This document shows positions 22,290 through 47,394 of a stretch of DNA of 64,000 bases, one piece after another. Source of the DNA: Candidatus Enterousia sp. (GTDB lineage Bacteria; Pseudomonadota; Alphaproteobacteria; Rs-D84); assembly GCA_045617905.1 (NCBI GenBank), contig JAZLJO010000003.1, positions 3,988-67,987 on the forward strand, in the 5' to 3' direction. The position numbers were made by a program, and so were the translations under genes. Position 1 is the stretch's first letter. The number at the start of each line of letters is the position of its first letter. The notes beneath the pieces are model-generated. The model searched no databases. It was given only the letters and a program-made list of their open reading frames with translations, and had not been told where the DNA came from.

Positions 22290-23525
22290 CTACCAACTCA
22301 TACTCTTGTATGTTTTTTTACCAACGGTGTCTCCAAAAATATTATTTTGCTGTTTGGTTAACGTTTCATATTGATCACTGGAAATCATACGTAAAACAAA
22401 ACCATTTTCATCACGTTGACTTAATACTGGTAAAATACGATATTCTGAAACCCCACTATCACGCAATGCTTGTTCAACAATTGCCAAACGACGAGCCGCC
22501 AACTTACGTTCATCGGCATTTTTTGTAACACTTTGCGGGATTGCAACCTGAATTGCACGTGTCGGATTTGCCAAAACAATACCCGCATACTCCGTTAACA
22601 AATTATAATTATCACGCGACAAGGCTGAATCATCATTACGGAATTTTATCTTTATTTCCAAAGGTCGAATTCCACCCTGCTCTGACAAATCACGTCGGGC
22701 TGTAAACCCTTCAACCGACGTTGTCATATCACTGACCACATCAAAGCGATTATCAATCTGATATGTAGACAAATGTTTATTTTCAGATAAGAATGTTTTT
22801 TTGAACGCCTTGCGTAATTCTGTTGGAGACATTTTAGACATATCATCATTTAATGATGCAACACGCACAGGTTCCGATTTTTCAACCGTACGCACAATAA
22901 CATCACGTTCCATAGGAACAACCATACGTGATAACGTAACATCATCCGTTACACTTTCAATCGGTTTGGCTGCATTTTTAATACTTTCATCGGCCCGACG
23001 CTGTAAATCATTCAAACGTGCAATTTGCATATCAAATTCACTATTAACAGTCGAACGTTTTGCAACCCTTTCAGAAACAGGTGTTGACACAATATCAACA
23101 ACAGGATTAGCAACAATCATGCTGTCTAAATCTTCCTCAGGCAACACGTCATCCGACCGTATAACAGAAAATTCTGAAACATTCGGCATACGCAATGGTG
23201 CAACGTCTGTTTGCGCCCACAAATCAGCACTTGGCCGATGTGGGTTCAACACATCATTTGTATGTTTTTTTATAATATTGTTCTCTGTCAATTTGGCTAA
23301 CGTCGTCTTTTTTTCAACATTCTTTGCAGAACGAGCCACCAAACGTTTTTGACCTTTCACCTTATCTGGTGCATTTTCCCGTTTTTTTTGTACCGGCATT
23401 GCTTCACCAAACATCGCACGTGCCGAAACACCATTTGCAGTCACATCCACAACCGGCAAACGTGCATCAGCCATCGCAGACGCCACAGCAAACAAAGACA
23501 ACAATGAAACGGTAAAAAAACGCAT
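22290..23525 (-). CDS. hypothetical secreted protein, possibly with a degenerate OmpA-like C-terminus
   Basis: Signal peptide MRFFTVSLLSLFAVASAMA. The C-terminal ...ERKLAARRLAIVEQALRDSGVSEYRILPV resembles an OmpA/MotB-type tail only loosely. Confidence 0.55.
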   Translation of the reverse strand: MRFFTVSLLSLFAVASAMADARLPVVDVTANGVSARAMFGEAMPVQKKRENAPDKVKGQKRLVARSAKNVEKKTTLAKLTENNIIKKHTNDVLNPHRPSADLWAQTDVAPLRMPNVSEFSVIRSDDVLPEEDLDSMIVANPVVDIVSTPVSERVAKRSTVNSEFDMQIARLNDLQRRADESIKNAAKPIESVTDDVTLSRMVVPMERDVIVRTVEKSEPVRVASLNDDMSKMSPTELRKAFKKTFLSENKHLSTYQIDNRFDVVSDMTTSVEGFTARRDLSEQGGIRPLEIKIKFRNDDSALSRDNYNLLTEYAGIVLANPTRAIQVAIPQSVTKNADERKLAARRLAIVEQALRDSGVSEYRILPVLSQRDENGFVLRMISSDQYETLTKQQNNIFGDTVGKKTYKSMSW

Positions 23526-30357: not shown

Positions 30358-30870
30358 CTAATATCGCCCAATACACCCCAAATAAGAATTCCCAGTCGAT
30401 TCTAAAATATTCACGAACTGGGTTTGATTCTTGCCTGAAAACAATGCTAATATTGTGCCTGTATCTGTTGCCAACATATCTGCAACGGTTGCAATGCCTG
30501 AATTCATTTTCTTGAAAAAGCCACTGCTAGGGTGAATTTCGGCGGCCAACAAGTGATTTACCCCCAAATGTTTATGCATAACCGCCTGTTTTTCAATAAC
30601 CATCAATTGACACTCTGGAGAAATTATAACTTTATCAGTAACAACGGCATCACTGCCTAACAATTCCCCCCACCATCCGGTTGATTCACAAAAAACAGGA
30701 TAATAAATAGCCGCATTAGGGTTTTCATTTAACACAGCCGCCAAATCAATATCCCCCATGATAACATCCGGCATAACACCAGTATTGGCATTTATAATCC
30801 TGCGTGCCATCTGATAATCCGAATCACCAGTTGTCTTGTGTGGCCAATAAAGAATCGGAAACTGCTTCAT
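30358..30870 (-). CDS. hypothetical cytoplasmic protein, downstream of membrane paralogue E
   Basis: 170-aa ORF on the same strand, 75 nt after the 651-aa gene; no motif recognised. Confidence 0.45.
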   Translation of the reverse strand: MKQFPILYWPHKTTGDSDYQMARRIINANTGVMPDVIMGDIDLAAVLNENPNAAIYYPVFCESTGWWGELLGSDAVVTDKVIISPECQLMVIEKQAVMHKHLGVNHLLAAEIHPSSGFFKKMNSGIATVADMLATDTGTILALFSGKNQTQFVNILESTGNSYLGCIGRY

Positions 30871-30945: not shown

Positions 30946-32901
30946 TTATCCTGCGACAAATGAACCGCTGCCAGAATTTACAAAAAACTGTCCACTTTCA
31001 ACATCATACATTCCCAACACATTATCAGAAATGCGCCGTGCCGGCCTAAAATCGTGAACGACCCGCCCGCCACGGGTAAATACAACCTGATAAATTCTAT
31101 CCCAACAAACCGAATCAGAATCATATCCATTGGCATTATATCCAAATATATACGCGGGCCAGCCAGAACCACCGGAAACTAACGAATCGGTAATATTAAA
31201 TATCGTTGTATCATCGACTTTGCATAATTTATCGTTTTTATAATTAACATCTATTTTTACGCGCCCCCCAACCGCAACGGGTTTTGTGCCATATTCAGCA
31301 ACATTCCAACCAAAAAATATATCTGCGGTGGCCCCAATCGCCCATTTAGAATTCGAATCTGTTCGTGATGTACATGTTCCTACAAATGCCCGCATCGCCG
31401 TTCGGGACGAATCGCCATCAACATACAAACGAATACCTGATGTTCCATCCGGAACAAATCCGGTATTAATATATGCCCGTCCATCACTTTGTAACCAATT
31501 TAAAAATACAACATTATTTTGTGCACCTGATGTTTCCCCGGCACCACTACCACCGCCACCACCAGACGTGCCACCTGAATTACTGTTTGTAACACTGGGG
31601 GTATTAACACCGCGTGCTTTATCAATCCATGTTTTAACCTTATCCGCCAAAATTTTAAAGTCAGATATTGCGTTATTAAACATATTTTCTGGAATTGCAA
31701 CATTCGCAAACAACGTTTTAACCAATACAGGGATCATTGTCATAAACATAGCAATAAATATCCCCAACATTACAATGACAAACAAACTGTCATTACGCAT
31801 ATTCATACCATCTATCAACAATTTCGAATCATTTTGTTGTAATGCAACCTGTAACGTATCAGCACCATTCCATGTTCCAAACATCGCATTTAATAACATA
31901 ATTGCAAATGTTATGAACACACACACCATTGCAATTCCAACAGTATTTTTAACAACATCATTTATAATACCACGAATATCCTTCGCCCCCATTCCTGGAA
32001 ATATTTTCCACCCCTTAAATAACCACGAAAAAAATGCCAGGGGCAACATTATCAAATCCAATGTTAATTCTAAAAATATTTCTAAAAAATACATCGGCAC
32101 AGGTAACATAGCCCAGAAAAATAATACCATTATCGCCAATCCAACAAAAAACATTACAACATTTGGAAATATTGGAACAGTATCGGCAATTTTATGCATA
32201 TAATCCGCATCAAATGCCATATTCAACATTGTCCAGCCAACCGTCATCCCCAACCCCGTCATTTGATGTACATTACCAATCTCGCATGCCAAATTATGCC
32301 GCAAACGCACAGGATAGGCCCCAAAATCATCCTGTTTTTCTCCATCAACCGACACCGCATCAACCAGCGCAGTTGCAACAAGACAATTTGCATATGAATC
32401 ATTATCCGTAATAACATGATTTATAGACAATCCAACATTAAACAACGGTTCAAAAACAATATTTGACATCAAACGTGGCAATGGGGCCAATAATAACGCC
32501 ACCACCACCCCCAACTTTATTAATTGTGTTGTAAACATTTCGGTAACCCGCCACGGGTCATCAATTTTTGCATTTAAAAAACCTGAAAATATGTTCCACG
32601 CGAACCATACAGCACACAACCCGGCAGATACAGGAACCAAAACCATCCCAATCCCAGTGTATGCATTTGCAGCAATTTTAGATAAAACTGCCAATATATC
32701 TGAAAACATTTGGCATGACCAACAACTGGTAAAAAAATTTAATGCACTGGACATATCAGCTGGCACATACGTTCGATACAATGAAAAACCTGCAATTACC
32801 CCCAACCCCGCAATTCCACCAATAACAACAGGCGCAACTGCACCCGCGGAAAACGGCAAAAACGATAATAATACAACCCAAAATTTTTTTATCACATTCA
32901 T
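30946..32901 (-). CDS. polytopic membrane protein, paralogue E, with Gly/Ser linker and C-terminal extracytoplasmic beta-rich domain
   Basis: 651-aa ORF with multiple hydrophobic helices. It has the SCWSCQMF and FEPLFNVG motifs shared with the A-D genes, the linker SGGTSGGGGGSGAGETSG, and a ~185-aa C-terminal domain (YINTGFVPDG...GMYDVESGQFFVNSGSGSFVAG). Confidence 0.75.
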   Translation of the reverse strand: MNVIKKFWVVLLSFLPFSAGAVAPVVIGGIAGLGVIAGFSLYRTYVPADMSSALNFFTSCWSCQMFSDILAVLSKIAANAYTGIGMVLVPVSAGLCAVWFAWNIFSGFLNAKIDDPWRVTEMFTTQLIKLGVVVALLLAPLPRLMSNIVFEPLFNVGLSINHVITDNDSYANCLVATALVDAVSVDGEKQDDFGAYPVRLRHNLACEIGNVHQMTGLGMTVGWTMLNMAFDADYMHKIADTVPIFPNVVMFFVGLAIMVLFFWAMLPVPMYFLEIFLELTLDLIMLPLAFFSWLFKGWKIFPGMGAKDIRGIINDVVKNTVGIAMVCVFITFAIMLLNAMFGTWNGADTLQVALQQNDSKLLIDGMNMRNDSLFVIVMLGIFIAMFMTMIPVLVKTLFANVAIPENMFNNAISDFKILADKVKTWIDKARGVNTPSVTNSNSGGTSGGGGGSGAGETSGAQNNVVFLNWLQSDGRAYINTGFVPDGTSGIRLYVDGDSSRTAMRAFVGTCTSRTDSNSKWAIGATADIFFGWNVAEYGTKPVAVGGRVKIDVNYKNDKLCKVDDTTIFNITDSLVSGGSGWPAYIFGYNANGYDSDSVCWDRIYQVVFTRGGRVVHDFRPARRISDNVLGMYDVESGQFFVNSGSGSFVAG

Positions 32902-32912
32902 TTGTGTTAAAG

Positions 32913-32942
32913 TATATCACATTTTGCCTTAAATGTGATATA
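32913..32942. promoter_or_regulatory. perfect 12-bp inverted repeat TATATCACATTT-N6-AAATGTGATATA in the 62-bp divergent intergenic region; each arm contains an extended -10-like TGTGATATA(AT/CT)
   Basis: Read directly. A third half-site, ATCACATT, lies at 32891-32898 inside codons 2-4 of gene E. Confidence 0.6.
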
Positions 32943-32963
32943 ATTGATAAAAAATATACAAAT

Positions 32964-34223
32964 ATGAATCCGGTTCAACATTTATTTATTTGGATAATAT
33001 CCCATCGTATTCCTATGTTGATTATAACATCAATTGTTATGATCCCGGGAACCGCATTGGCAGATTGGGATTTCGTTGATGCATTAAATTTGGCACCATT
33101 TGTTTCAATGGTATTAGATGCCATGATGATGGTCGCAACCGGCGGATACGAATTTTTTGTAAAACCAACATCCGGCATCGGAATTATTCAAATGTTGATA
33201 TGGGGATTCTTTAGTTTATCTGTTACACTGTATTTAATAAAAATGTATTTCCCAAAAACATGGGTTGAATTTGCCGGTTTTTCCGGTGGCGGTGAAATGA
33301 TATCGGGGGAACAACCAGAAAAAATCGCAACAAACATTTTACGCCCCGGCCTGCGTGCAATAATTGCGACCGTTGTATTATTACAAATCAAACCGACATT
33401 TGTAACAGATGTTTTGGTTAATCCATTTTTACAATTTGGTGCCATTTACACGAATGGGGTTTTATCAACAATAAATGTTCCAACCGCCCAATCGGTGGTA
33501 TGTCCCCCCGAAATTATATCAAATGGATGGATATCCCAAGCGTCTTGCAATTATTTATTGCAACCGGTATCCGATTTATCACATGCCAACAATCAAATTG
33601 TTAAACACGGATTGGATTTTGTTGTAAATGGGTTAAGCGGTCTATTTACACCGATATTTCATGGTGGTGCAGATTTTATGAATATATTAACAGGCATATT
33701 ATTAATTATCGCATTTGTTGGATGCAATATATTTATGGCGTTATTAATAATTGGGGCGATATTTGAAATGGGAATGTCTTTAATATTATATCCTTTTCAG
33801 GTATTAACATGGGTTGTTACCGCAAAAAATACCGATGGCTGGTTTGATGTTTGGCCTGCATTTTCCGGCATTGTCAAAGCATTACAGCAATTAATAATCA
33901 CAATGATTGCATGTGCAATTATTTTGGGAATAAATATTGCCATTGCCAATTCTATGTTGGGATGGCTTAACACACTGTTTACTAATGCATCCGGTGACAA
34001 TTTTTCATTCGGTTCACACACAATTATATGGATAACCGCAATACTAACAATTTATATAATGTATGAATTATTTAATAAAACCCGCCAAATATTATTAAAA
34101 TTTGCCGGTTCAAATGCAGATGCATTTTATAAAACCGCAACTGCCGACACAAAAAATTTTGCAAATACTATAAAAAACAACGCGGTAACAATTGGCAAAG
34201 CATTAGGATGGATTAAAAAATAA
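32964..34223 (+). CDS. polytopic membrane protein, paralogue A
   Basis: Start placed at MNPVQHLF (the track ORF from 32904 would abut gene E on the opposite strand, leaving no divergent promoter region). Multiple TM helices; VNPFLQFG motif; Lys-rich tail ending KALGWIKK. Confidence 0.7.
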   Translation: MNPVQHLFIWIISHRIPMLIITSIVMIPGTALADWDFVDALNLAPFVSMVLDAMMMVATGGYEFFVKPTSGIGIIQMLIWGFFSLSVTLYLIKMYFPKTWVEFAGFSGGGEMISGEQPEKIATNILRPGLRAIIATVVLLQIKPTFVTDVLVNPFLQFGAIYTNGVLSTINVPTAQSVVCPPEIISNGWISQASCNYLLQPVSDLSHANNQIVKHGLDFVVNGLSGLFTPIFHGGADFMNILTGILLIIAFVGCNIFMALLIIGAIFEMGMSLILYPFQVLTWVVTAKNTDGWFDVWPAFSGIVKALQQLIITMIACAIILGINIAIANSMLGWLNTLFTNASGDNFSFGSHTIIWITAILTIYIMYELFNKTRQILLKFAGSNADAFYKTATADTKNFANTIKNNAVTIGKALGWIKK

Positions 34224-34225
34224 CA

Positions 34226-35404
34226 ATGACAGATTTGGCAAACATTTTAATTGATTCATCAGTACAGTGTTGGGGATGTGCTGTATTTGACCGGTTGTTT
34301 CAAATCGTTTCAACGATGGCGGCGGCAATATACCATAAAATGGCAATTATTTGCATGATATTGTTTATCATATTATTGGCATTTTATATTTTAAACGTCG
34401 TATGGAAAAACATTCGTGAAAACAACGCCCAAGATACATTGTACAAAGATTCATTACAACGCGTATTTATAAATGCAATTGTTGCATTCGCATTACTTAG
34501 TACCGGTGTAATATTTCCACGTTTTTTAACAACCATAACATTTGAACCGGCCGCACAAATCGCATTAATTTATACAGATTCAATGTTGCAAACCGACCCG
34601 GCAACCGTTAATGAACGCGTAACATATCAACCCGAAAAAATATCCCAGGACGGATTTTTCCGACCACAATTACGGGACACAATAATAACGTTAATGAAAT
34701 CATCTGTTACAATGTTTCAATCGTTTATTAAATTGGGCATTGCAATAATGGATCAGGCGTTTTCATGGTCCGCCATGTTAAGTATCGGAATGTTTATTAA
34801 ACATATAATTATATTTTTTATCGGTTTATTTATATCATATAAATTTTTTGAATTGTTCTTACGTTATTGTTTTTATTTTGTAGATATCATAATTGCAATG
34901 GCATATTTTTCATTTTTCTTTCCGTTATCGTTATCAATGGTCGCGTTTAATGGTGCCAAAGACGTTCCGTCTTGGATGGCGGGAATCGGCAAAGAATTTG
35001 GGACGGGATATTTCAAACGTGTTATTAATGCCATTGTTGGCTTGGTTGCGGCCGTAATTTCATATACCATAATAATGGTAATAATTGCAAAATTTTTTAC
35101 CGCCAACGGGGTATCTGCATCAGATTTAATGTCAAAAATATTATCGGGCAATATATTTGAGGCACAATTATCAGAAAACAATCTGGCGATATTGGGAATT
35201 TTTAGCACGATTGTATTGATATATGTTTTAGATTTTATTTCAAAAAAGATTCCAACAATTCAAAAAATGATATTGGATGTATTCAAAGTATCGGCGGATA
35301 CAAAAATGAATGAAAATATGGCCACAGATATGTTCAGACTACCTGAAAATATAAAAAATTTCGGTCAAAAGATTAATGATATTATTAAAAAAATTAAACC
35401 ATGA
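34226..35404 (+). CDS. polytopic membrane protein, paralogue B
   Basis: QCWGCAVFDRLF motif, FEPAAQIA motif, multiple TM helices, and a Lys-rich tail. Starts 2 nt after the stop of A. Confidence 0.7.
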   Translation: MTDLANILIDSSVQCWGCAVFDRLFQIVSTMAAAIYHKMAIICMILFIILLAFYILNVVWKNIRENNAQDTLYKDSLQRVFINAIVAFALLSTGVIFPRFLTTITFEPAAQIALIYTDSMLQTDPATVNERVTYQPEKISQDGFFRPQLRDTIITLMKSSVTMFQSFIKLGIAIMDQAFSWSAMLSIGMFIKHIIIFFIGLFISYKFFELFLRYCFYFVDIIIAMAYFSFFFPLSLSMVAFNGAKDVPSWMAGIGKEFGTGYFKRVINAIVGLVAAVISYTIIMVIIAKFFTANGVSASDLMSKILSGNIFEAQLSENNLAILGIFSTIVLIYVLDFISKKIPTIQKMILDVFKVSADTKMNENMATDMFRLPENIKNFGQKINDIIKKIKP

Positions 35405-36834
35405 AAAAAGTAATTATTTCTTTTTTAGTCAAAGCCATTTTGCCGATAATCACTATCAGCATTGCGATATGGTATGTTTACACATCAATTGGCGGTGGTG
35501 CAATCACATATTCCAGCATGGACCGTTTTTTGAACGCCGTTGGGGCAAACGGTGACATTGCAAATACAAATGGTTGCTTTTTATGTGAAATATTGGAAAA
35601 AACATTTGGTGTACTGGGCGATGCCACAGAAAAATTTTGGTCTACAATTGTAAACGCCCTGTGGGTTTTGATGGCGATTGGATTTGGTATTTACATATTT
35701 GTATATTCTGGTCAATACATCTTAGACGCTGCAAAAACAACAACCAAATTGGACACAAATGAAAAGAAAATCGATTTTAGTAAATGGTTTGAAACGATTC
35801 GTAAATTATTAATTCGCATTTTAATCGTTGGGGCATTAATTGGTGTTTTGGGTATGGGGGGCAACACTGTATTACGTGCAGTATCATACGTTTTAATTAC
35901 CCCCGTATTATATGTTGGCAGTGTATTGTCAATGATGGCAACGGGCGCAATAGACGGGGCATCATGCTATGCATTAACAAACGCTGCAAACGATGTTATG
36001 GGGCCCGTATTCCAATCATTCATGTGCGTTATCGGAAATTTAAACAGCGTTATGTTGGCCGGTGTCGCAGGTGGTTTTTCATTAATGAATTATGCTTGGA
36101 TGGGTATGGGGGGCGGGATATTTACATGGATGGCGGGATTAACATTGGTTATTATGTTCATAATAATCGGATTTGATTTATTTTTTCAAATTTTAACAAT
36201 TATTTTCAAATTAATATTTATAATAATATTTTTACCATTTTTATTGGCAGCGGCGGCATGGGACAAAACATGGTCAGTTGCATCAGGCGCAATTAATGGT
36301 GCAATAAATATGATTGTAACATCGGCCCTAAGCATAATTTCAATAACCCTTAAAACAATAATTACATACGCAACAATAACCGTTGCAGCCGATGCATATT
36401 TTCCAGCCCCGATGGACGGATATACGGCTATTTTTCCACCAACATTTGGACAAAATATTCAAAATCCAGACAATCAAACATTATCTGTTGTAAACGTATT
36501 CAAAACCTGTGAAGAAAAGGCAAGCGTATCTGGAACATTAGATAAAGATACATTTGTAACATGTTTTACTGCACAACGTGCAATGGTTGAACGTAAATAT
36601 CCGCATGCATTTGATTTTATGTCAGATGGGTGGGAATTCATAATGATTATGATTTTGATATTCTTTTTATATTACTATGTAATATCGCCAAAAATTGATG
36701 ATGTTTTAGTTAAACCTGCAACTGACAACTTTGATTTTGGCGGCACATTAAAAACATTGGGGAAAAACACATATAATCAGGCACAAAAATATATTACTGC
36801 ATTTGCAAAAAATCGGGGATGGATTAATTCATAA
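35401..36834 (+). CDS. polytopic membrane protein, paralogue C
   Basis: GCFLCEILEKTF motif, ITPVLYVG motif, and tail KNRGWINS. ATGA overlap with B. Confidence 0.7.
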   Translation: MKKVIISFLVKAILPIITISIAIWYVYTSIGGGAITYSSMDRFLNAVGANGDIANTNGCFLCEILEKTFGVLGDATEKFWSTIVNALWVLMAIGFGIYIFVYSGQYILDAAKTTTKLDTNEKKIDFSKWFETIRKLLIRILIVGALIGVLGMGGNTVLRAVSYVLITPVLYVGSVLSMMATGAIDGASCYALTNAANDVMGPVFQSFMCVIGNLNSVMLAGVAGGFSLMNYAWMGMGGGIFTWMAGLTLVIMFIIIGFDLFFQILTIIFKLIFIIIFLPFLLAAAAWDKTWSVASGAINGAINMIVTSALSIISITLKTIITYATITVAADAYFPAPMDGYTAIFPPTFGQNIQNPDNQTLSVVNVFKTCEEKASVSGTLDKDTFVTCFTAQRAMVERKYPHAFDFMSDGWEFIMIMILIFFLYYYVISPKIDDVLVKPATDNFDFGGTLKTLGKNTYNQAQKYITAFAKNRGWINS

Positions 36835-38144
36835 TGAAACAATATTTAATGAGATTTTTTAAAATTATTACCTGCGGTATGTTTATATTAAACATCGGTC
36901 TGGGTAATGCATTTGGCGATGCGATACCACAATTTTCCGAAAACGGCGATAACACCGGTATAATTAATCAAAGTGCAATCAATAATATCACATCAAATTT
37001 ATCCGCTGATTTGAATCAATTTGGAAAAAATGTCCATTCCATACAATTGGTTGATGATTTTGTCCCGATCGAGGCCAAGGTTGGTCTGGCATTAATGAAT
37101 GGTATTTCATTGGTTGGACACATGTTAGACATATCATTATTTAGATTTGCAATATTGTTTATGGTTACCATGTTCGCATTTTGGATAATGGGCGAAACAT
37201 ATAAAATGATGCAAAGCAGCAGTAATATCATGGATTTATTACAATCAATTGTCCGCCAAGGGGTAAAAATTGCCATTTGTATCATAATATTACGCTTTGG
37301 TCCCGCAAAAATATTTATGGCAGTTGCGACACCAATAATATTATTTGGCGTATATGTATCTGACATGATTTTAAACACGGTAACAAACTTTGCCGGAATA
37401 CAAATTCCAGATACCTGCAATGCAATTTATCAATACGCCGCCGCAAACACATCACAACAAATGTTAATTGACCCAGATGCAGCGGCTGGTTTAATGTGTA
37501 TCCCAACACGATTAACCGGTTTTTTATACACGGGTGTTGCCACCGGATTTCATTGGATGCGTTTTGGAATCGGCAACAGTGGTTTTACATTTTTAATTGG
37601 TTTTGCGTTTGTTGTTTTATTTATTTTGGCCGCTTTTAAATTTGCATTTATTTCATTGGGGGTAATATTAGATTTGTTTTTATCAATTTTATTATTACCA
37701 TTGACCGCAATTGCAGAAACAACGGCAAAAACAAAATATGATGGAATTGTTGGCAATATTATAAACAGTTTTATGGGCTTATTTAAAACAGATAAATTTA
37801 AATTGGAATCTGTTATAAAAAAATTCATAAATGCATCGTTATATTATGTATCATTGGCGGTATCAATTGGATTTTGTGGGGCGTTATTATCATGGTTAAT
37901 GCCAATTGATATACAAACACATATTCCAACCCCAACGGATTTAGGTTTTATTTCAACATTATTATCAATTTGTTTGGTCATATATTTTATTGATGGCACC
38001 GAAGATATTGCAAAAAAATTGACCGGCAATATTGATAGCAGCACCGGATTGGCAAATCAAATTAAATCAGATTTAACAAATACATGGAATTTATCAAAGG
38101 CACAAACCGAAAAAATATGGAAACTAATCAAAGATAATTTGTAA
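36834..38144 (+). CDS. polytopic membrane protein, paralogue D (cleavable signal peptide, then TM bundle)
   Basis: Signal peptide MKQYLMRFFKIITCGMFILNIGLGNAFG, ATPIILFG motif, and tail EKIWKLIKDNL. TAATG overlap with C. Confidence 0.7.
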   Translation: MKQYLMRFFKIITCGMFILNIGLGNAFGDAIPQFSENGDNTGIINQSAINNITSNLSADLNQFGKNVHSIQLVDDFVPIEAKVGLALMNGISLVGHMLDISLFRFAILFMVTMFAFWIMGETYKMMQSSSNIMDLLQSIVRQGVKIAICIIILRFGPAKIFMAVATPIILFGVYVSDMILNTVTNFAGIQIPDTCNAIYQYAAANTSQQMLIDPDAAAGLMCIPTRLTGFLYTGVATGFHWMRFGIGNSGFTFLIGFAFVVLFILAAFKFAFISLGVILDLFLSILLLPLTAIAETTAKTKYDGIVGNIINSFMGLFKTDKFKLESVIKKFINASLYYVSLAVSIGFCGALLSWLMPIDIQTHIPTPTDLGFISTLLSICLVIYFIDGTEDIAKKLTGNIDSSTGLANQIKSDLTNTWNLSKAQTEKIWKLIKDNL

Positions 38145-38378: not shown

Positions 38379-39374
38379 ATGACAGATGTAAATAATCAAA
38401 TTGCTATATATATTGCTGAAAACGGGCAAACACAAATTGATGTTCGTGTTCAGGATGACACGGTATGGTTAACCCAGGACGCAATATCAAAATTGTTTGG
38501 AACGACGATACCTAATATAAATATGCATATTAAGAATATTATATCCGAAGGCGAATTGGACGAAAATTCAACTATTAAGGATTTCTTAATAGTTCGTTCA
38601 GAAGGGAAACGCAGGGTTTCTCGTCAAATTTCGCATTACAACCTTGATATGATTCTGTCTGTGGGATATCGTGTAAAATCTAAAACAGCAACACAATTTC
38701 GTATCTGGGCAACAAAAACATTAAAAGATTATTTGTTAAATGGGTATGTTGTAAATCAACAGATGTTATCCGAACAAAAATCAAAGATGTTAATGTTGCA
38801 AAGAACATTAGATTTAATGAGTCGCAGTATTGAAAATCAAGCACAAACCATTGACCAGGCGCAACAGGTATCACGTGTTCTGAATGATTTTGTAAAAGGG
38901 TTGAATTTACTTGATGATTTTGACCATAAAACATTGGACAACCAAGGAAAAACTGAATCAACTGCAATCGTAATTACCCCAGATGAATTTTTATCCGTGG
39001 TTGATAAAATGAAGGGAAATTTTGCCAGTGATGTATTCGCAAAACCCAAAGATGAAAGTTTTTATAGTTCCATCGGTCAAATATATCAAACATTTGATGG
39101 CAAAGACTTGTATCCAACATTGGAAGAAAAAGCGGCAAATTTACTATATTTAATCGTAAAAAATCACAGTTTTGTTGATGGAAACAAACGTATCGGCGCC
39201 AGTTGCTTTTTATATTTCTTGGATAAAAACAATATGTTGTATGGGAATAATGGTCAAAATATTATAGATAGTGCCACATTATTTGCATTGACATTATTGA
39301 TAGCGGAAAGCACACCATCCGAAGCAGATACCGTTAAACAGGTTGTTATCAGTATATTAAATCGCAGACCATAA
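38379..39374 (+). CDS. RhuM-family N-terminal domain fused to a Fic/Doc-family domain
   Basis: N-terminus IAIYIAENGQTQIDVRVQDDTVWLTQDAISKLFG...SVGYRVKSKTATQFRIWATK (RhuM-like). C-terminus HSFVDGNKRIG fits the Fic/Doc motif HxFx(D/E)GN(G/K)R. Confidence 0.85.
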   Translation: MTDVNNQIAIYIAENGQTQIDVRVQDDTVWLTQDAISKLFGTTIPNINMHIKNIISEGELDENSTIKDFLIVRSEGKRRVSRQISHYNLDMILSVGYRVKSKTATQFRIWATKTLKDYLLNGYVVNQQMLSEQKSKMLMLQRTLDLMSRSIENQAQTIDQAQQVSRVLNDFVKGLNLLDDFDHKTLDNQGKTESTAIVITPDEFLSVVDKMKGNFASDVFAKPKDESFYSSIGQIYQTFDGKDLYPTLEEKAANLLYLIVKNHSFVDGNKRIGASCFLYFLDKNNMLYGNNGQNIIDSATLFALTLLIAESTPSEADTVKQVVISILNRRP

Positions 39375-39624: not shown

Positions 39625-42600
39625 TTATTCAACGGTTAACATAACTGTATCACCATAACCACCGGCCTCGGTCGTGCCGATATAACACCGGATTTTAGAA
39701 CCAATTTCCGTCATAAATTCTTCCCATGCGGCATCTTTGGCCTCGTCATTTTTGGCTTCTTGAATGTTTTCGGCAATTTTATGTGCCGCAATACCAACAC
39801 CAACCGCCCCAACCGTTGCCCCGATTGCCGTACCAAACTGTGCACCGGTTAATTTACCTTTTAATACACCTTTTGATTCAGTAACAACCCGTGAGCAATC
39901 AACACTGGTCGCAAATTCTTTTATCATCTTTGCGGCACAGTCACTAAGAGTAGTAGTAGTAGTAGTAGTAGTAGCACAGCCTTCCCCAGTTTTTGTTGCC
40001 CAGTTTTCGTCGGCTTTGAAAGGTTCTGATAGGCCATTCAAATGATTTTTCACAATACTAATTATGGAGTTAGTATTAACATTTTTTAGATATGATACAT
40101 GTGCTTTACAATCATTCAGATTTTTCGTATCATCCTTATTACTGGTCAAATTTGGTAAAATATCACCGTTTCCGATTTTATTACCCAATACGCCACCACC
40201 GACGCCACCGCCCAAGATGCCGGCCCACGTTGCAATACGACGATTTCTTTTTTGACGTCTTTCATCTGCCGATGATATCGCATCCGAACGTACCGCATCT
40301 TCTATTTTATCCATATCCGCATCTTTCAACCAAGACCCACAGATAAATGCATCACCAACCGCAAAATACCGCGTTGCTTTTGCAGAATTGTCTTCCAAGA
40401 ATTTTTTAATCTTTGGATCGGTTGATGTCATTGTTACACGTACACGGCAAAATGAACCATACAAATCATTCGACGCAATCAATTGTGCACCCTCCAAACC
40501 ATTTGTTGAATAATCGGATGGAACCTTGCCTGATTTCAATTTAGCCCACATATATATGCCGGAATCATTTCCACCAAATGCCCCCACAACACCACCATTG
40601 TTGTTTTTCAAACAAACATTTTGTTCCTTGGTCAATTTGGCGTTATATTTGGCCTGAACCTCTATTTCAATATCGTTCAAAACCTCGGCAAATATGGTAT
40701 TTGCAGCCAATCCCTGTTGATATTCTTCTTTGGTTGCATATTTTTGATCACCCGCACTAGCATCATAATCATCACAACTTTTGCTTTCACCATCCTTGTT
40801 TGTGCAGGCGTATTCTGACTTATCGTTTAATTCAGATATGCCTCCGGCCAACCAACCTTCACGAACTGTATTATTATCCCCCCAACTGTCCGCAGCATTT
40901 TTATTTGCATATGTATCAGAAATTTCCGCCAATTTGATTGCCAAATGATCTTCACATGCGGCATTATTTTTAACCGTATTCATGCACAAACCAATAACAA
41001 TTGTTCGATCCAATACACCGCCAACCTTATTCATGCTGTTATCATATGCCGCTACAGTCGTTTTTGTAATACCAGACATTATGTCTGTACGATTACGATA
41101 ACAATTTTCATAATCATCCCCACACATTGATTTTACACAATTTTGTGCGGTCTTGATACATTGTTTACGTTTTTGTGCAATCGCGGGTGCATTAAACGCA
41201 GATGACAATGATGCATTTAATTTTGCAACTGCACCGATTGGATCAGTCTTATTCGTTTCATCATACGCCGGGAACAGAGTTGCAAACGCATCCGCATCTG
41301 AATAGATATTCAACGTATTTGATGTTATCGTATCACCCAATACCGCCATCTTTGAATATATGCAATACGGATTTGTATTAACAATCGCAGCACAACCAAC
41401 CTGAATATTACCATACGATGCAACATCGTTTATAGATCCATTAATACTACCACTTGTCCCGAATACGGATGCATAGCATGCGGCGCCATTACCGTTACCA
41501 CACGAACGCATTGCACATGATTTAATTGTTTCATAACATTTATTTTTCGCACGTGCATCGAACTCTTCAGATAATTTTTTAATCTTTTCTTTTGCCGACG
41601 CATTCATACGGGTTGCAAACGCTTCGGCAAAAACATCTGCCTGGGCATCTTCATCCAAAACAACCCGATCTGACGGAATTTCGCCTTTGTTTGCCAATTC
41701 ATCATTAAATACTAAATGACAATATTTATTCGTACCAATGACATCTTGACATGCGGAACGAATATACTTAGCAACATCACTGTTTGAAATTGCATCTGTA
41801 AATGCGGCACTGCCCTGTCCCACCACTTTGGACTGATCATATTTTGCCAATATTGTTCCCAGTATATCATCTGACGTTTGATCACCCGCACCGGCAGCAG
41901 TTTCCGCCTGGGCTGTGGTAGTTCCTTCAATACATTTAAATGGATTTTTTGCACATGCACCAATAATACAACTGTCTACAACCTTATAACATGTATTAAC
42001 CGCATTTTTGGCCGCCAACGCTGCTCCATCATCAATCATCTGTCCGATACGGCTGTCTGCGCTGTTTAACTGAACCGTTCCCTTTAATGATCCATCCGGA
42101 TTAATATCAATATCCTTACCAAACAGGGCAATTATCCCTTCTTTGGGGCACCGAACCAATGTCGATGCACAAAATGACATTTGTTTTTTAAATTCTTTTA
42201 TCCCAGTACACAATTCAAAATCCGGCCCACAAACGGTATCTTTGTGAACACAATTTGTATATTTTTTTACACATTGCGATGTATCATAACGATTTGATAT
42301 CGCGCCACCCGCAACACGCTGTCCCATAATACTGGTATCTGTTGGATACGCATATTTGGCATCTTCTTTACCGGCGGTACCACTGGAAACTGTTCCTAAC
42401 GCTGTTACAGAATTCGTCCCAAACAATGCCGTAATTCCATCTGGCTTGCATTGGTACAATGTACTGGAACATTTCGCCATTTGCCCGTGAAATAATTCTG
42501 TTGTTGTGCATTCTTCAAAATTCGTTCCACAGGCATCACTTCCCGTTATACATTCGGTATATGCGTCGATGCATTCTGCATTATCCATCAAATTTGTAGT

Positions 42601-42804
42601 CCCCGTCACCGTCGTTGTAACCGTCGTGGCAGGACGCCCATTTGTGGTTGTATATTTAAACTGATTATTTGGGTTTATAAAATTCGGCATATTTGAACGC
42701 GATGCCACAGTTGTCACAACACTGGGCCGTGCCGTTACAGCAAATACACTTGAAAAACATGCCATAAACGCCAGAAAACTAACAGTTTTTTTCATAAAAA
42801 ACAT
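39625..42804 (-). CDS. large secreted Cys-rich (Cx6C-module) protein with C-terminal glycine-zipper segments
   Basis: Start set at MFFMKKTVSFLAFMACFSSVFA (GGAG 7 nt upstream). Internally duplicated ~55-aa Cys module, poly-Thr tract, and C-terminal GILGGGVGGGVLG and GTAIGATVGAVGVGIAA. Confidence 0.75.
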   Translation of the reverse strand: MFFMKKTVSFLAFMACFSSVFAVTARPSVVTTVASRSNMPNFINPNNQFKYTTTNGRPATTVTTTVTGTTNLMDNAECIDAYTECITGSDACGTNFEECTTTELFHGQMAKCSSTLYQCKPDGITALFGTNSVTALGTVSSGTAGKEDAKYAYPTDTSIMGQRVAGGAISNRYDTSQCVKKYTNCVHKDTVCGPDFELCTGIKEFKKQMSFCASTLVRCPKEGIIALFGKDIDINPDGSLKGTVQLNSADSRIGQMIDDGAALAAKNAVNTCYKVVDSCIIGACAKNPFKCIEGTTTAQAETAAGAGDQTSDDILGTILAKYDQSKVVGQGSAAFTDAISNSDVAKYIRSACQDVIGTNKYCHLVFNDELANKGEIPSDRVVLDEDAQADVFAEAFATRMNASAKEKIKKLSEEFDARAKNKCYETIKSCAMRSCGNGNGAACYASVFGTSGSINGSINDVASYGNIQVGCAAIVNTNPYCIYSKMAVLGDTITSNTLNIYSDADAFATLFPAYDETNKTDPIGAVAKLNASLSSAFNAPAIAQKRKQCIKTAQNCVKSMCGDDYENCYRNRTDIMSGITKTTVAAYDNSMNKVGGVLDRTIVIGLCMNTVKNNAACEDHLAIKLAEISDTYANKNAADSWGDNNTVREGWLAGGISELNDKSEYACTNKDGESKSCDDYDASAGDQKYATKEEYQQGLAANTIFAEVLNDIEIEVQAKYNAKLTKEQNVCLKNNNGGVVGAFGGNDSGIYMWAKLKSGKVPSDYSTNGLEGAQLIASNDLYGSFCRVRVTMTSTDPKIKKFLEDNSAKATRYFAVGDAFICGSWLKDADMDKIEDAVRSDAISSADERRQKRNRRIATWAGILGGGVGGGVLGNKIGNGDILPNLTSNKDDTKNLNDCKAHVSYLKNVNTNSIISIVKNHLNGLSEPFKADENWATKTGEGCATTTTTTTTLSDCAAKMIKEFATSVDCSRVVTESKGVLKGKLTGAQFGTAIGATVGAVGVGIAAHKIAENIQEAKNDEAKDAAWEEFMTEIGSKIRCYIGTTEAGGYGDTVMLTVE
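39949..39972. repeat. trinucleotide repeat (AGT)8, which is (ACT)8 on the coding strand and encodes Thr8
   Basis: Read directly. It lies in frame inside the 1068-aa ORF (CATTTTTTTTLSDC). Confidence 0.95.
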
Positions 42805-42829
42805 CGACTCACTCCATATTTTATGTATC

Positions 42830-42838
42830 ATTATATCA
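42830..42838 (-). promoter_or_regulatory. candidate extended -10 (TGATATAAT) upstream of the 1068-aa gene
   Basis: The minus strand reads cgttttATGATATAATgatac, about 26 nt upstream of ATG 42804. Confidence 0.3.
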
Positions 42839-43876: not shown

Positions 43877-44344
43877 TTATTTGTATTCTGACCAATTTTT
43901 AGATTTATCACATTTTGATAAATTAATTTCTATATCACGCCCATTTACATCAACATTACAAACCAACATTCCGGTACTAATCCCCTGGTCTGCATTTTGT
44001 TTTGAATTACGATAGGCAAAATTCAACTGTTTTGGGGGATATAAACATACAATATTTAACGTTCCATCATGCCCCCCGTTTGGTCCAACCCATACACGAA
44101 CACCATACCCCAAACCATAACATGGGAACGAATCCAAATAATATAATTCCAAACCCTTGGCTACCAATTTTGTATCACTAATAAATGTCCCCCGATATTG
44201 ATTTAATTGTAACCCCGTCAAAGCCTGCCAATCCGTACTGGTGGAAAAAAGGCTGATCCGTGATGTTGCCGTATCGGTTGCAGAAAACGCCGCCCTGGTC
44301 ACCATTGATACAATTATTACAAGCAAAAAATATGCACGTTTCAT
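43877..44344 (-). CDS. hypothetical secreted protein
   Basis: Start at MKRAYFLLVIIVSMVTRAAFS (signal peptide), 1 nt after the stop of the upstream gene. Confidence 0.5.
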   Translation of the reverse strand: MKRAYFLLVIIVSMVTRAAFSATDTATSRISLFSTSTDWQALTGLQLNQYRGTFISDTKLVAKGLELYYLDSFPCYGLGYGVRVWVGPNGGHDGTLNIVCLYPPKQLNFAYRNSKQNADQGISTGMLVCNVDVNGRDIEINLSKCDKSKNWSEYK

Positions 44345-44345
44345 A

Positions 44346-44858
44346 TTATTCACCCTGGGTTGAAAATTTAACAATTATCTTTTTAACCTTATCGGCGGGG
44401 CTGGTTAAAACCTGGCTGAATGGAACAGATGTCCCGGCATCAATCAATGTTGCCGATGGAATAAATTTTTGACGTCCAATAACCATGCCATTGGCATCAT
44501 ACGAAATCGCAACCAAATCCGGTGCCCCATATATTTCATCAGATTTATTTTCCACAACCCCCGTCACAATAAATCGTGGTACACCAATCGCATCGGGGGC
44601 CGTACGTGTATCTGTTACACGAACAACCAATGGCTGTTGCATTTTCTTTGCTGAATTATGATTTGTAATCATAACCGCTGCGGCAAAAACCAATGCCGCC
44701 AATGCTGCACACATTGCAGCAAACAATGTCAACACCGCCCCACGACGTGGTGCATGTGTAACATTCCACACATAACCACAAACCGCACACCGAACGGGCC
44801 CCGATGTTGCACCATCAATAGAATATTCCGTTTTACAAAAATTGCATACCGTTTTCAT
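44346..44858 (-). CDS. MJ0042-type zinc-ribbon / DUF3426-like membrane protein
   Basis: N-terminal CNFCKTEY...CAVCGYVW zinc ribbon, one TM helix (LTLFAAMCAALAALVFAAAV), then a ~100-aa beta-rich domain. This is the typical Zn-ribbon plus DUF3426 layout. Confidence 0.65.
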   Translation of the reverse strand: MKTVCNFCKTEYSIDGATSGPVRCAVCGYVWNVTHAPRRGAVLTLFAAMCAALAALVFAAAVMITNHNSAKKMQQPLVVRVTDTRTAPDAIGVPRFIVTGVVENKSDEIYGAPDLVAISYDANGMVIGRQKFIPSATLIDAGTSVPFSQVLTSPADKVKKIIVKFSTQGE

Positions 44859-44878
44859 ACAAACATTTATACCATAAA

Positions 44879-46186
44879 TTATTCTAAATTCAACAAACGA
44901 TATTTTGCACGCACACGGGCCTGAATTTCAATAATCGCATTGGCAAAATCTGCGATTGTGGCATTTGAATTTGACGATACAGATGAAAATATTCGTGTTG
45001 AATCCGATCCGGACACCTGTTCTTGTTTCAAAACCAATGGTGCCATTCGATTCAATTCTGATAATATCATATCATTAAAATTTGCAGTTTCATTATCTAT
45101 GTCCCAATAATAATCTGGATTAATTGAATCAGAAATTTTATTACGAACAATCAACCGTGGGGTAACAGATCCAGAAAAACCAACGGTTACCATCAATGCA
45201 TTTATACGGCCCAACACCATATCCAGGGTTTCATTAATACGCAATATTGCGGGTTTGTCCGAATTGCTGTCAACAGAAAAACCGGGCAACGTTAATTTTG
45301 AAATCCATAAATTTTTAACATTAAAACCGGAAAATTTTCCAACATCTTCTAATTTAAAAGATTTCACAACCTCCATCGACCGTCCATCCGCAGACAACAC
45401 ACCATTTACACTGGCATTTTTTGTTTGATAATTAGAATCAATCGCAGTTCTGTTTTGAAAAACAACCGTATCAACAACACCTGCACCAAATTTTAATCGA
45501 TCGTTTATATTTATCATTGTTGTATTTAATGATAAAACATTCTTTAAATCATGTTGTCCCAAATTTAATGCAACATTCATTGTGGCATCCATTACATCAT
45601 CCGATGGCAACCGCCATAAATATAACGCATTATCTTGATTTACGGTCGTTGTTTTAACAATCCCGTTTAATCCACCAATTCCTAAATCCACATTATCCAC
45701 ACGCCACGTACCATACGCACCATATGTCCGCTTTCCATCAACAAAACCAATATTTTGCCCACCAATTGCAACAATTTCACGGGTTCTGATTGGTGTGATA
45801 TCATCACTGTTATAAACAATCACCCCTTGTAAAGATGCCCGACCATCTGCGGTGCCCGATTTTAATATTCGTAATTGATAATTCGCATTATATTGAATAT
45901 TTATTCCGTATTCAGCCAACGCATCAATATTTACACGTGTGATTGTATTGCCAACCGTATTCAATAAATGTTCACGATTTTCTGCAATATAGCGTTCCAA
46001 TGCAACACGAACACTATCCATCTGTTGTGTAATGGCAATATTTTCTGCACGGCGCACAGTTCTGCGATGATATTGAATAACAAATGGCATTATAACCGTA
46101 ACCAACGCAACACTTAACAATAATTCAATTAACATATTTCCTGAATTTGAATTATTTTTCAAAAAATTAAATTTTTGTTTAATCAT
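44879..46186 (-). CDS. large prepilin-type N-terminal domain protein (P3)
   Basis: MIKQKFNFLKNNSNSG/NMLIELLLSVALVTVIM is a class III signal with Glu at +5. ATGA overlap with P2. The track ORF extends to 46216. Confidence 0.7.
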   Translation of the reverse strand: MIKQKFNFLKNNSNSGNMLIELLLSVALVTVIMPFVIQYHRRTVRRAENIAITQQMDSVRVALERYIAENREHLLNTVGNTITRVNIDALAEYGINIQYNANYQLRILKSGTADGRASLQGVIVYNSDDITPIRTREIVAIGGQNIGFVDGKRTYGAYGTWRVDNVDLGIGGLNGIVKTTTVNQDNALYLWRLPSDDVMDATMNVALNLGQHDLKNVLSLNTTMININDRLKFGAGVVDTVVFQNRTAIDSNYQTKNASVNGVLSADGRSMEVVKSFKLEDVGKFSGFNVKNLWISKLTLPGFSVDSNSDKPAILRINETLDMVLGRINALMVTVGFSGSVTPRLIVRNKISDSINPDYYWDIDNETANFNDMILSELNRMAPLVLKQEQVSGSDSTRIFSSVSSNSNATIADFANAIIEIQARVRAKYRLLNLE

Positions 46187-47394
46187 TGCAAATTCTCCGG
46201 CTGAAATGATTGCCAATTATCACCCATTATGATGTAAAATTCATCTTTGGACGGCACACTTGGGATTTCGGTCCGTGAAAATGTTATGCTGTGAAAATTT
46301 GGCAGTGACGCCGATGGATATACCCAAGTCCCGATTTTCAATGGTGCGGTGGCTGAATTTAGCAATTCTCCGGACACCGTCAAACCAAAATTTTCAAAAA
46401 ACAACAATTGTTCTGTTCGTAAAAATGGCACTGCAACACGATTGGCCTTAATACCAGAAAATCCGGAAATTGTTCGAACATAATCAGATTTAACAACAAA
46501 ATCTTTAGCAACATTTAATGTTTCTGAAATATTTGCACGATCTGCAATAACACGTCCAAATGTTGTATAGGTATTGCCGTTCATATTATCTGCATATATA
46601 TTGCGAAAACCAGACACATCACCAGAGACACGAATATTTTCAAATTGTGCATTTCCACCCTCTAAATTGGCACCTGACGAAAAATGTACCGTTCCCGCGA
46701 CCAATTCATCTGTTTCGACAAACGTTGTAATTGCCCCCTTGCCAAGAACACTTTTGGCATCAATTTTTCCAACATTTTCAATATTATGCCCAGACATATT
46801 CAAATCACGTTGCATAATATTTAAATCCAAATCACCAGATGCCGTGCGGTGCAAATAACGCGACGAATCTATTTCCGAAACATCGCGTGATATTTTGTAA
46901 ACTAAATATCCTGGTTCAAAATTTGGTACTGCAACCGCCCACGTATTTCCATAAACAATTCCATCCGTCATCACAACCGCTGCGGCTTCACCAATATGAC
47001 GTGCAATTTTATTTGCACGCACATAATTATCATCAATATCAAACGCTAAATAAACATCTGTAACAGATGAACCATTAACTTTATACTTATCAATAAATCC
47101 TGCAACCGCATCACTGGACATATTTTTTAAATCATCTGACGATAAATTTATTTGTGCCACATCAGGCCATGATTCTTGATTAAAACGAATAAAATTCAAT
47201 ACATTATCACGACTGGATACAATTTGATTGGCAACCGCTACATCACGAACAGCATCGTTGGCCCGTTGCATCTGACCATATAAAAACGGTGTTGCCATTG
47301 CAATAATCGCCAACGACAAAACTACCTCAGTCATAGAGGCGCCAAATTCCTGATTAATAAAAACAAATTTATTAATTACAGCCACTTTTCCCAT
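46183..47394 (-). CDS. large prepilin-type N-terminal domain protein (P2)
   Basis: MGKVAVINKFVFINQEFG/ASMTEVVLSLAIIAMATPF, with Glu at +5. Confidence 0.7.
   Translation of the reverse strand: MGKVAVINKFVFINQEFGASMTEVVLSLAIIAMATPFLYGQMQRANDAVRDVAVANQIVSSRDNVLNFIRFNQESWPDVAQINLSSDDLKNMSSDAVAGFIDKYKVNGSSVTDVYLAFDIDDNYVRANKIARHIGEAAAVVMTDGIVYGNTWAVAVPNFEPGYLVYKISRDVSEIDSSRYLHRTASGDLDLNIMQRDLNMSGHNIENVGKIDAKSVLGKGAITTFVETDELVAGTVHFSSGANLEGGNAQFENIRVSGDVSGFRNIYADNMNGNTYTTFGRVIADRANISETLNVAKDFVVKSDYVRTISGFSGIKANRVAVPFLRTEQLLFFENFGLTVSGELLNSATAPLKIGTWVYPSASLPNFHSITFSRTEIPSVPSKDEFYIIMGDNWQSFQPENLQ

Follow-up and report, generated by a model that had tools for sequence, protein, structure and literature searches.

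Five adjacent genes (E, A, B, C, and D; positions 30946 to 38144) in a chromosomal segment of Candidatus Enterousia sp. encode diverged membrane proteins that, judging from profile comparisons and structure models, very probably belong to the VirB6/TrbL superfamily. The segment, referred to here as the window, is the whole stretch of DNA that was analysed (64 kb, ~37% G+C). The array represents a branch of the VirB6 family that is new, unannotated, and very diverged; its closest analogue is the VirB6 expansion of the Rickettsiales. VirB6 is a hydrophobic inner-membrane subunit that forms the base of the stalk of type IV secretion systems (T4SSs) and a platform for the handling of pilin or substrate. 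The first-pass annotation of the window had put the five genes forward as an uncharacterised membrane system; the five paralogues stand, but the system is not of a wholly new kind, because it represents a very diverged branch of a known family.

Five Paralogous Membrane Proteins

All five open reading frames were found at the positions given in the first-pass annotation, as follows:

Gene E, 30946..32901, minus strand, 651 aa: VirB6-like paralogue, nearest to the TrbL-positive proteins of sister lineages
Gene A, 32964..34223, plus strand, 419 aa: VirB6-like paralogue with a signal peptide
Gene B, 34226..35404, plus strand, 392 aa: VirB6-like, no signal peptide, N-terminal CWGC helix
Gene C, 35401..36834, plus strand, 477 aa: VirB6-like, N-terminal transmembrane (TM) anchor, CFLC motif
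Gene D, 36834..38144, plus strand, 436 aa: VirB6-like, signal peptide, without CxxC

The junctions are also as described before: A and B are separated by 2 nt, B and C overlap by ATGA, and C and D by TAATG. Four of the five paralogues (A–D) are translationally coupled; the A–B and B–C overlaps were also present in three of four related loci inspected. B, the shortest of the five, is nearest in size to a minimal VirB6.

Plain BLAST gave a good link for E and B only, with short local matches for A–B and C–D. When profiles built from ~80 orthologues per gene were compared with hhalign, E and B were linked with a Prob of 100% (E-value 2e-55), and E–C, A–D, E–D, C–D, and E–A with a Prob of 78–95%. 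All five also matched a hub profile of 29 sister-lineage proteins over 248–358 columns (Prob 100% for E, 99.9% for B, 99.6% for D, 99.0% for A, and 98.9% for C), with E-values of 1e-40 for E, 2e-24 for D (339 columns), 3e-18 for A (334 columns), and 1.5e-17 for C; reversed-sequence controls against the same hub reached at most 3.9%. These profile comparisons support the earlier description of the proteins as diverged copies of one architecture and indicate that E, A, B, C, and D are true paralogues.

Each motif quoted in the first-pass annotation occurs at one position in the protein named for it, and the sharing of motifs has statistical support; independent profile alignments place the (E/N/T)-P-x4-G motif in one and the same column (G157 in E, G159 in A, A113 in B, G173 in C, and G172 in D). 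The C[WF]xC motif is kept in 73 of 79 E, 74 of 81 B, and 80 of 80 C orthologues as well as in 24 of the 29 sister-lineage proteins, and is missing in A and D; the mature N-terminus of A (DWDFVDALNLAP) occupies the position at which B, C, and E have their CxxC helix. Four paralogues, all but B, keep a Cys pair in the central loop. The earlier statement that only D carries a clear cleavable signal peptide did not hold, as the A orthologues have one too and the N-terminus of E is signal-like. This E N-terminus (32776-32901) reads as a signal-peptide-like segment ending in FLPFSAGA, directly followed by a Gly-rich hydrophobic segment and then by CWSC; should the two segments both be membrane-spanning, the CxxC of E would be cytoplasmic, opposite to the side inferred for A, B, C, and D.

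The core of E covers residues ~1–435, and residues ~440–651 (DNA 30946-31581) consist of a Gly/Ser linker and a beta-rich soluble domain. E had been singled out as the only protein with an extra soluble domain; the domain is present but confined to its own sublineage (the window and two relatives, L001 and L002), and E orthologues are 420–438 aa long except P0190 and P0221. Searches of PDB sequences, of phages, and of the remainder of the window and loci found no match to this domain, and its AlphaFold2 (AF2) confidence was <50.

Relationship to the VirB6/TrbL Superfamily

Three lines of evidence (a fold match, a sequence bridge, and profile comparisons) back superfamily membership, in agreement with the first-pass suggestion that the VirB6/TrbL paralogues of the Rickettsiales are the nearest precedent. 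The sequence bridge runs through proteins of sister lineages. An exhaustive hmmsearch of 1.84 billion representatives with the B profile found 100 proteins and no more; its distant matches have 450–1018 aa, and Pfam TrbL hits the same central segment (profile positions ~85–195) in 6 of 21. One of these sister-lineage proteins, P0208, matched Pfam TrbL with 34.2 bits, above the cutoff of 25.9, with five others at 19–25 bits, and the B profile finds this TrbL-positive protein at an E-value of 4.7e-5. The P0208 family is PF04610-positive, with one member named "type IV secretion system protein" by NCBI, an annotation that part of the sister-lineage proteins share.

The hub profile was also compared with a canonical reference of 11 VirB6 proteins from annotated plasmid T4SS operons of the VirB5-EexN-VirB6 type, in which each VirB6 gene lies just after a virB5-type gene, with an EexN-type or unnamed lipoprotein gene between them in 9 of 11. 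This comparison gave a Prob of 96% (E-value 4e-9, score 72.7) over 275 collinear columns, nearly the full length of VirB6, while 24 controls (2 reversed and 22 block-shuffled) scored at most 32.7 (Prob ≤15.6%). In the alignment, the conserved Pro of the TM core (P181 in TrwI, the VirB6 protein of R388) falls on a Pro in all five proteins (P277 in A), and B and D retain N205 of TrwI. A lone "type IV secretion system protein" from an Erythrobacter megaplasmid, retrieved by tblastn of protein P0199 against plasmids, lay outside a T4SS operon and was dropped as a reference.

AF2 models of B (pLDDT, the AF2 confidence score, of 65) and E (pLDDT 56) were searched against 350,542 PDB chains with Foldseek. 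Both models show an all-helical bundle in the conserved core, and R388 TrwI/VirB6 was the top natural PDB match of both, with 8rt9_F for B (E-value 7.5e-3, prob 1.0) and 7o3v_J for E (prob 1.0; 7o3v_F gave a target-normalised TM-score of 0.52). Over both models, the TrwI/VirB6 matches had a prob of 0.9–1.0 and target-normalised TM-scores of 0.39–0.52, compared to a prob of ≤0.3 for other membrane proteins. The models thus suggest a VirB6 fold (a bundle of ~7 long, mostly hydrophobic helices) in B and E, a support that we grade as weak to moderate because of model quality.

Arrays in Sister Lineages

The sister-lineage proteins also sit as tandem arrays in housekeeping neighbourhoods without a nearby VirB4. 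Four such arrays were compared:

Locus L083: five paralogues of 770, 781, 857, 474, and 650 aa
Locus L086: five paralogues of 533, 659, 645, 524, and 843 aa
Locus L099: five paralogues of 557, 678, 687, 514, and 858 aa
Locus L084: four or five paralogues

The L086 and L099 arrays are orthologous position by position, and C is orthologous to position 4 (the hidden Markov model of the C family scores 78 bits on L099 position 4). Position-wise orthology together with a C-like position 4 tentatively suggests that the Enterousia array derives from an ancestral 1-2-3-4-5 array in which gene 1, now E, has been inverted. A copy number of about five recurs in at least four lineages. VirB6 is a pentamer at the base of the R388 stalk (PMC9259494) and has been proposed as the assembly platform for pilin (PMC9259494; PMC12857230); its Legionella counterpart DotA is also reported to be pentameric (PMC12857230), and Rickettsia has five RvhB6 paralogues, RvhB6a–e (PMC2653234).

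A gene for an 85–88-aa protein with two TM segments and a Lys-rich tail heads the arrays of L083, L086, and L099; the protein is like VirB3 in shape only. Divergent unannotated genes lie opposite the arrays in all three loci; the stretches with these array-head features are 1567-5227 in L083, 861-4484 in L086, and 5811-10000 in L099. In L086 and L099, these form an operon encoding four unannotated proteins (~504, 361, 188, and 148 aa), and the set ends with an RHH_4-type regulator; the 361-aa family recurs beside arrays in four loci. By eye, the 137/148-aa protein of the divergent operon resembles immunity proteins of the SUKH/SMI1 type.

Conservation, Selection, and the Shared Control Region

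Host genomes of Candidatus Enterousia are ~0.9 Mb in size, and the window carries mostly housekeeping genes (mraY-ftsW-murG, PBP1a, leuS, gyrA, secA, dnaX, lpxD, and recG). The host order is Rs-D84 of GTDB and not Rickettsiales (PMC12306168), some records being merely submitter-labelled "uncultured Rickettsiales"; Rs-D84 genomes are <1 Mb, lack a tricarboxylic acid cycle and respiration, and point to an inferred lifestyle as obligate symbiont or parasite (PMC12306168). The 896 homologues of B and 761 of E are without exception from uncultivated Alphaproteobacteria and lack Pfam domains. A scan with one genome per species yielded 184 encoding stretches, of which the best 80 loci, covering ±10 kb round the array, were used; with six sister-lineage loci, the set comprised 86 loci. 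The 80 loci, which include a circular chromosome of 958,618 bp, are labelled Candidatus Enterousia or gut Alphaproteobacteria and come from horse, ruminants, chicken, mouse, and human sources.

Every locus that spans the region in these 80 species-level genomes has the block E(−)|A-B-C-D(+) with all five genes intact, so that absence or decay of the array in close relatives, envisaged in the first-pass annotation, was not seen. Gene order in the spanning loci is an inositol-monophosphatase (IMPase)-family gene, a gene that we call u170, E on the minus strand, and then A-B-C-D on the plus strand. Protein identity to the window is mostly 40–64% across the loci, reaching 98% in the two nearest relatives, and the lengths of the array proteins are stable across loci. 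Ratios of nonsynonymous to synonymous substitution rates (dN/dS), calculated against two relatives, were 0.07–0.20 for the five genes, highest in D, the fastest-evolving of the five (0.16–0.20), compared to 0.02–0.05 for the neighbouring PBP1a and IMPase genes; these values indicate that the five genes are under purifying selection.

The 62-nt intergenic region between the divergent genes E and A contains one further conserved feature:

Inverted repeat, 32913..32942: perfect 12-bp repeat, TATATCACATTT-N6-AAATGTGATATA

With up to two mismatches, the core of this repeat (ATCAyATTT-N6-AAATGTGAT) is found at this position, with a variable spacer, in 72 of the 77 species loci, has no other occurrence in the ~1.5 Mb of loci, and occurs only once in the window. 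The repeat overlaps promoter-like sites on both strands (TGaTATAAT on the plus strand and TGaTATACT on the minus strand), and may serve as the operator of a dimeric regulator or, equally, represent two extended −10 elements placed back to back; a scan of σ70 promoters and terminators was uninformative overall (52 sites vs. 54 expected). E and A–D share this one conserved control region, which supports treating the five genes as a single unit.

The left flank of the array was given as rpmE in the first-pass annotation; we find instead a gene for a 170-aa protein without family match, followed by the IMPase-family gene and then PBP1a:

Gene u170, 30358..30870, minus strand: soluble 170-aa protein, 70-90 nt downstream of E on the same strand

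This gene lies beside E in 73 loci with 63–97% identity and is more conserved than the VirB6-like genes (dN/dS 0.05–0.10). It may be co-transcribed with E, and its membership in the system is uncertain. u170 had no match in Pfam, NCBIfam, or PDB sequences and was not found beside the sister-lineage arrays; as a candidate sixth paralogue it was ruled out (hhalign <1%). On the right, a RhuM-family/Fic-domain gene lies directly after D (38379-39374, plus strand). This gene is present only in the window and in its closest relative, L001, and is absent from that place in 78 other species; its distribution indicates that it is a recent local insertion and not part of the system. Other species encode a UvrD-like helicase and a DnaQ-like exonuclease downstream of D. 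As noted at first pass, no enzyme or ATPase partner adjoins the array.

Comparison with Known Type IV Secretion Systems

The rvh T4SS of the Rickettsiales shares several features with the array. Both occur in host-dependent Alphaproteobacteria with reduced genomes, both are chromosomal and off mobile elements with all copies kept under constraint, and both include copies with long hydrophilic extensions, as in E and in sister-lineage proteins of 500–1018 aa. In rvh gene maps, the rvhB6 arrays directly follow rvhB3-rvhB4, whereas no virB4 lies within 10–30 kb of the array described here, and E, u170, and the IMPase and PBP1a genes are found upstream. Unlike rvh, the Enterousia array has one inverted gene, which creates a divergent operon pair with a conserved inverted repeat, and the CxxC and central-loop Cys pairs are limited to this clade in the comparison. 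The Enterousia proteins are also smaller (390–480 aa vs. 670–1150 aa for RvhB6). The rvh system likewise has 4–5 tandem, same-strand, extremely diverged VirB6 paralogues, with ~80% divergence even within the domain (PMC2653234); its RvhB6 proteins match PF04610/COG3704 and keep the essential Trp (PMC2653234), which none of the five proteins does. The rvh component set also includes duplicated B4, B8, and B9 (PMC2653234).

TrwI of R388 (PDB 7O3V, 8RT9, and 8RTD) resembles the array proteins in having an N-terminal amphipathic helix, a Pro in the TM core (GP / LP), and a size like that of B, and the pentamer formed by canonical VirB6 (PMC9259494) matches the recurring copy number of five. Canonical VirB6, in contrast, is a homo-pentamer encoded by a single gene in a virB2–virB11 operon, next to virB5 and an EexN/VirB7 lipoprotein gene; CxxC is found in none of the 11 reference proteins, and sequence identity is only 10–13%. 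Extended VirB6 proteins (F-plasmid TraG, MPF_FA VirB6 homologues, and Anaplasma VirB6-4) combine a hydrophobic core with large hydrophilic domains (PMC12857230), a description that fits E (651 aa, with its beta-rich C-terminal domain) and the 650–1018-aa sister-lineage proteins; they differ in being single components of recognisable T4SS loci, and their added domains are unrelated to the C-terminal domain of E. The sister-lineage arrays share homologous proteins (99–100% in hhalign), about five tandem copies, and the lack of a nearby VirB4, but lie on one strand, encode larger proteins, have the two-TM gene at their head, and include a position 1 protein that passes the TrbL threshold. Our literature searches yielded no published description of the array or of the sister-lineage arrays, and a search on Rs-D84 and secretion systems gave nothing relevant.

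Proposed Role and Alternative Explanations

We propose that the five gene products would co-assemble, in the simplest case into a hetero-pentameric VirB6-type platform to which each contributes one copy. The periplasmic side would carry the N-terminal helices and the Cys-stabilised central loops, the helices being exposed by signal-peptide cleavage in A and D and by the N-terminal anchor in C; the helix of B would lie outside according to the positive-inside rule, as in canonical VirB6. With its lineage-specific C-terminal domain, E would represent an extended VirB6 with a possibly exposed binding module. The platform would be the inner-membrane and periplasmic core of a chromosomally scattered, rvh-like T4SS or of a T4SS-derived apparatus, and these bacteria, reduced and dependent on a partner, would interact with another cell through it. 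Taken as a whole chain, this proposal has our moderate confidence; a strict 1:1:1:1:1 hetero-pentameric ring, for which the recurrence of about five paralogues in at least four lineages is circumstantial support, is possible but doubtful.

Several observations weigh against a VirB6-type platform of a T4SS. None of the five proteins matched Pfam even at an E-value of ≤1, PF04610 (TrbL) included, or gave a hit in NCBIfam; equally, neither database gave a match to an unrelated transporter family, which would have spoken against the first-pass reading. Profile searches of PDB sequences with the B family and with a mixed outgroup alignment yielded nothing meaningful, and comparison of the latter with TrwI alone aligned only the LPLxxxxW stretch, without significance (E-value 0.05, Prob 1%). 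Direct hhalign comparisons of each Enterousia family with canonical VirB6 were not significant (0.5–9%), so that the VirB6 assignment is transitive, through an intermediate lineage. Foldseek E-values were ~1e-2 and TM-scores 0.4–0.5 on models with a pLDDT of 56–65, and the column of the VirB6 Trp (W199), which is invariant and essential in the family (PMC2653234), holds I, A, Y, A, and V, in a register that is uncertain after the loop; a Trp does follow the Pro by 6–20 residues in E, A, B, and C, in the same loop and out of register. At the level of the apparatus, no VirB2–5, VirB7–11, or VirD4 gene was found in the window or within ~10 kb of the array in the 86 loci, a search that covered the window and the loci round the arrays and not the rest of the ~0.9-Mb genome. 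To our knowledge, every well-studied system, that of Rickettsia among them, has its virB6 genes next to virB4.

The empty database searches, the marginal Foldseek E-values on medium-confidence models, and the loss of the hallmark Trp would also be expected if the proteins were not VirB6 but a novel polytopic transporter or permease family, whose likeness to VirB6 is a by-product of long hydrophobic helices. Controls that keep hydrophobicity fall far short of the real alignment (≤32.7 vs. 72.7), which is collinear over nearly the whole of VirB6; in addition, two independent models pick the same PDB protein, and a sister-lineage orthologue passes the TrbL threshold. The controls largely refute this explanation, which we consider very improbable. 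Decay of an integrated conjugative element, leaving VirB6 genes with no current function, might account for the RhuM/Fic gene beside D and for the lack of other T4SS genes nearby, but the five genes are intact, with stable lengths and dN/dS of 0.07–0.20, the base composition of the array is like that of its flanks, the Fic gene appears to be a local insertion, and no integrase, repeats, or tRNA border were seen at the array; the conservation and selection data refute this idea, to which we give virtually no credence.

The absence of T4SS genes near the array in 86 loci from at least four lineages would fit another possibility, a VirB6-derived inner-membrane and periplasmic machine that works independently of a T4SS, perhaps with u170 or further lineage-specific proteins and without a VirB4/VirD4 ATPase, co-opted for a different essential envelope task such as metabolite or lipid uptake from a partner cell or a platform for Cys-rich surface proteins. 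Such a machine would fit a core chromosomal array with housekeeping flanks and its own conserved promoter or operator, the CxxC and loop Cys pairs (four of five paralogues) that are foreign to canonical VirB6, and the presence, in many genomes, of Cys-rich secreted protein genes near the array; on the other side, we know of no VirB6-family protein that works without VirB4. Genome reconstructions of Rs-D84 mention no secretion system, lack standard transporters, and contain many unknown membrane proteins (PMC12306168), which is also in line with a T4SS-independent role, but the silence of a metabolic survey on T4SSs is no proof of absence, and the VirB4 search covered neighbourhoods only. Moreover, absence from the neighbourhood is weak evidence because T4SS genes in the Rickettsiales are scattered over several islands (PMC2653234). 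We consider a T4SS-independent machine unlikely. Quite unlikely is its most specific form, in which a hetero-pentameric VirB6 platform of five dedicated paralogues would act as a stand-alone machine of the envelope in Rs-D84 and in several sister gut lineages, without VirB4/VirD4 ATPases, for instance to take up material from a partner cell or to display the Cys-rich surface proteins.

Other Genes in the Window

A Pfam and NCBIfam scan of ten other unknown proteins encoded in the window found nothing. Several further genes may be of interest:

47372-48730, 46183-47394, and 44879-46216, minus strand: three weakly paralogous proteins of 400-450 aa, no family match
44346-44858 and 43877-44374, minus strand: Zn-ribbon membrane protein and small secreted protein, after the prepilin-like trio and upstream of a RluD-like gene
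39625-42831 (1068 aa), 1895-5038 (1047 aa), and 58670-60922 (750 aa, 25 Cys), minus strand: large Cys-rich proteins, no family match
22290-23525, minus strand: secreted 411-aa protein beside murG, no Pfam match
6059-7153, minus strand: BspA-type leucine-rich-repeat protein (Pfam LRR_5, E-value 3e-23)

The N-termini of the three weakly paralogous proteins read like type IV prepilin signals (...QEFG|ASMTEVVLSL, ...NSNSG|NMLIELLLSV, and ...RQGG|NFLLQALL, the last with Q at +5), and the genes at 43877-48730 may represent a cryptic pseudopilin or type IV filament module; in a published survey that covered three gut lineages with reduced genomes, type IV pili were noted only in a lineage other than Rs-D84. 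At least the 1068-aa and 1047-aa Cys-rich proteins have signal peptides, and in other species, genes for relatives of the 1068-aa protein follow the array at a distance of a few kb. A 290-aa open reading frame (5035-5907, minus strand), in an operon with the 1047-aa gene, is homologous to the gene after the L086 array (E-value 2e-13); the LRR_5 gene, upstream of both and in the same orientation, may belong to the same transcript. BspA-type leucine-rich-repeat proteins are typical surface or adhesion modules of host-associated bacteria. The C-terminal 130 aa of the secreted 411-aa protein show 35% identity to a protein that is encoded directly after the L083 array and itself has a faint OmpA match; the 411-aa protein may be a peptidoglycan-binding partner.

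Implications

Assignment to the VirB6/TrbL superfamily would give an identity to five conserved "hypothetical" membrane proteins, amounting to ~0.8% of a ~0.9-Mb genome, in a group of widespread and unstudied bacteria of the human and livestock gut that the literature describes as short of ordinary transporters and as probably living off another cell; it also means that Pfam and NCBIfam annotation miss a whole branch of the family. Arrays of about five copies in several reduced lineages, together with the pentameric state of VirB6, suggest a testable hetero-pentamer hypothesis for the old question of why 4–5 VirB6 genes persist in the Rickettsiales, and the Enterousia proteins should be easier to model and express than RvhB6 because they are much smaller. 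If the genomes lack VirB4, the array would represent a VirB6 platform that works outside a T4SS; the stand-alone reading, if true, would make this the first such case known for a VirB6-family complex, with the base of the stalk co-opted for a different, essential task.

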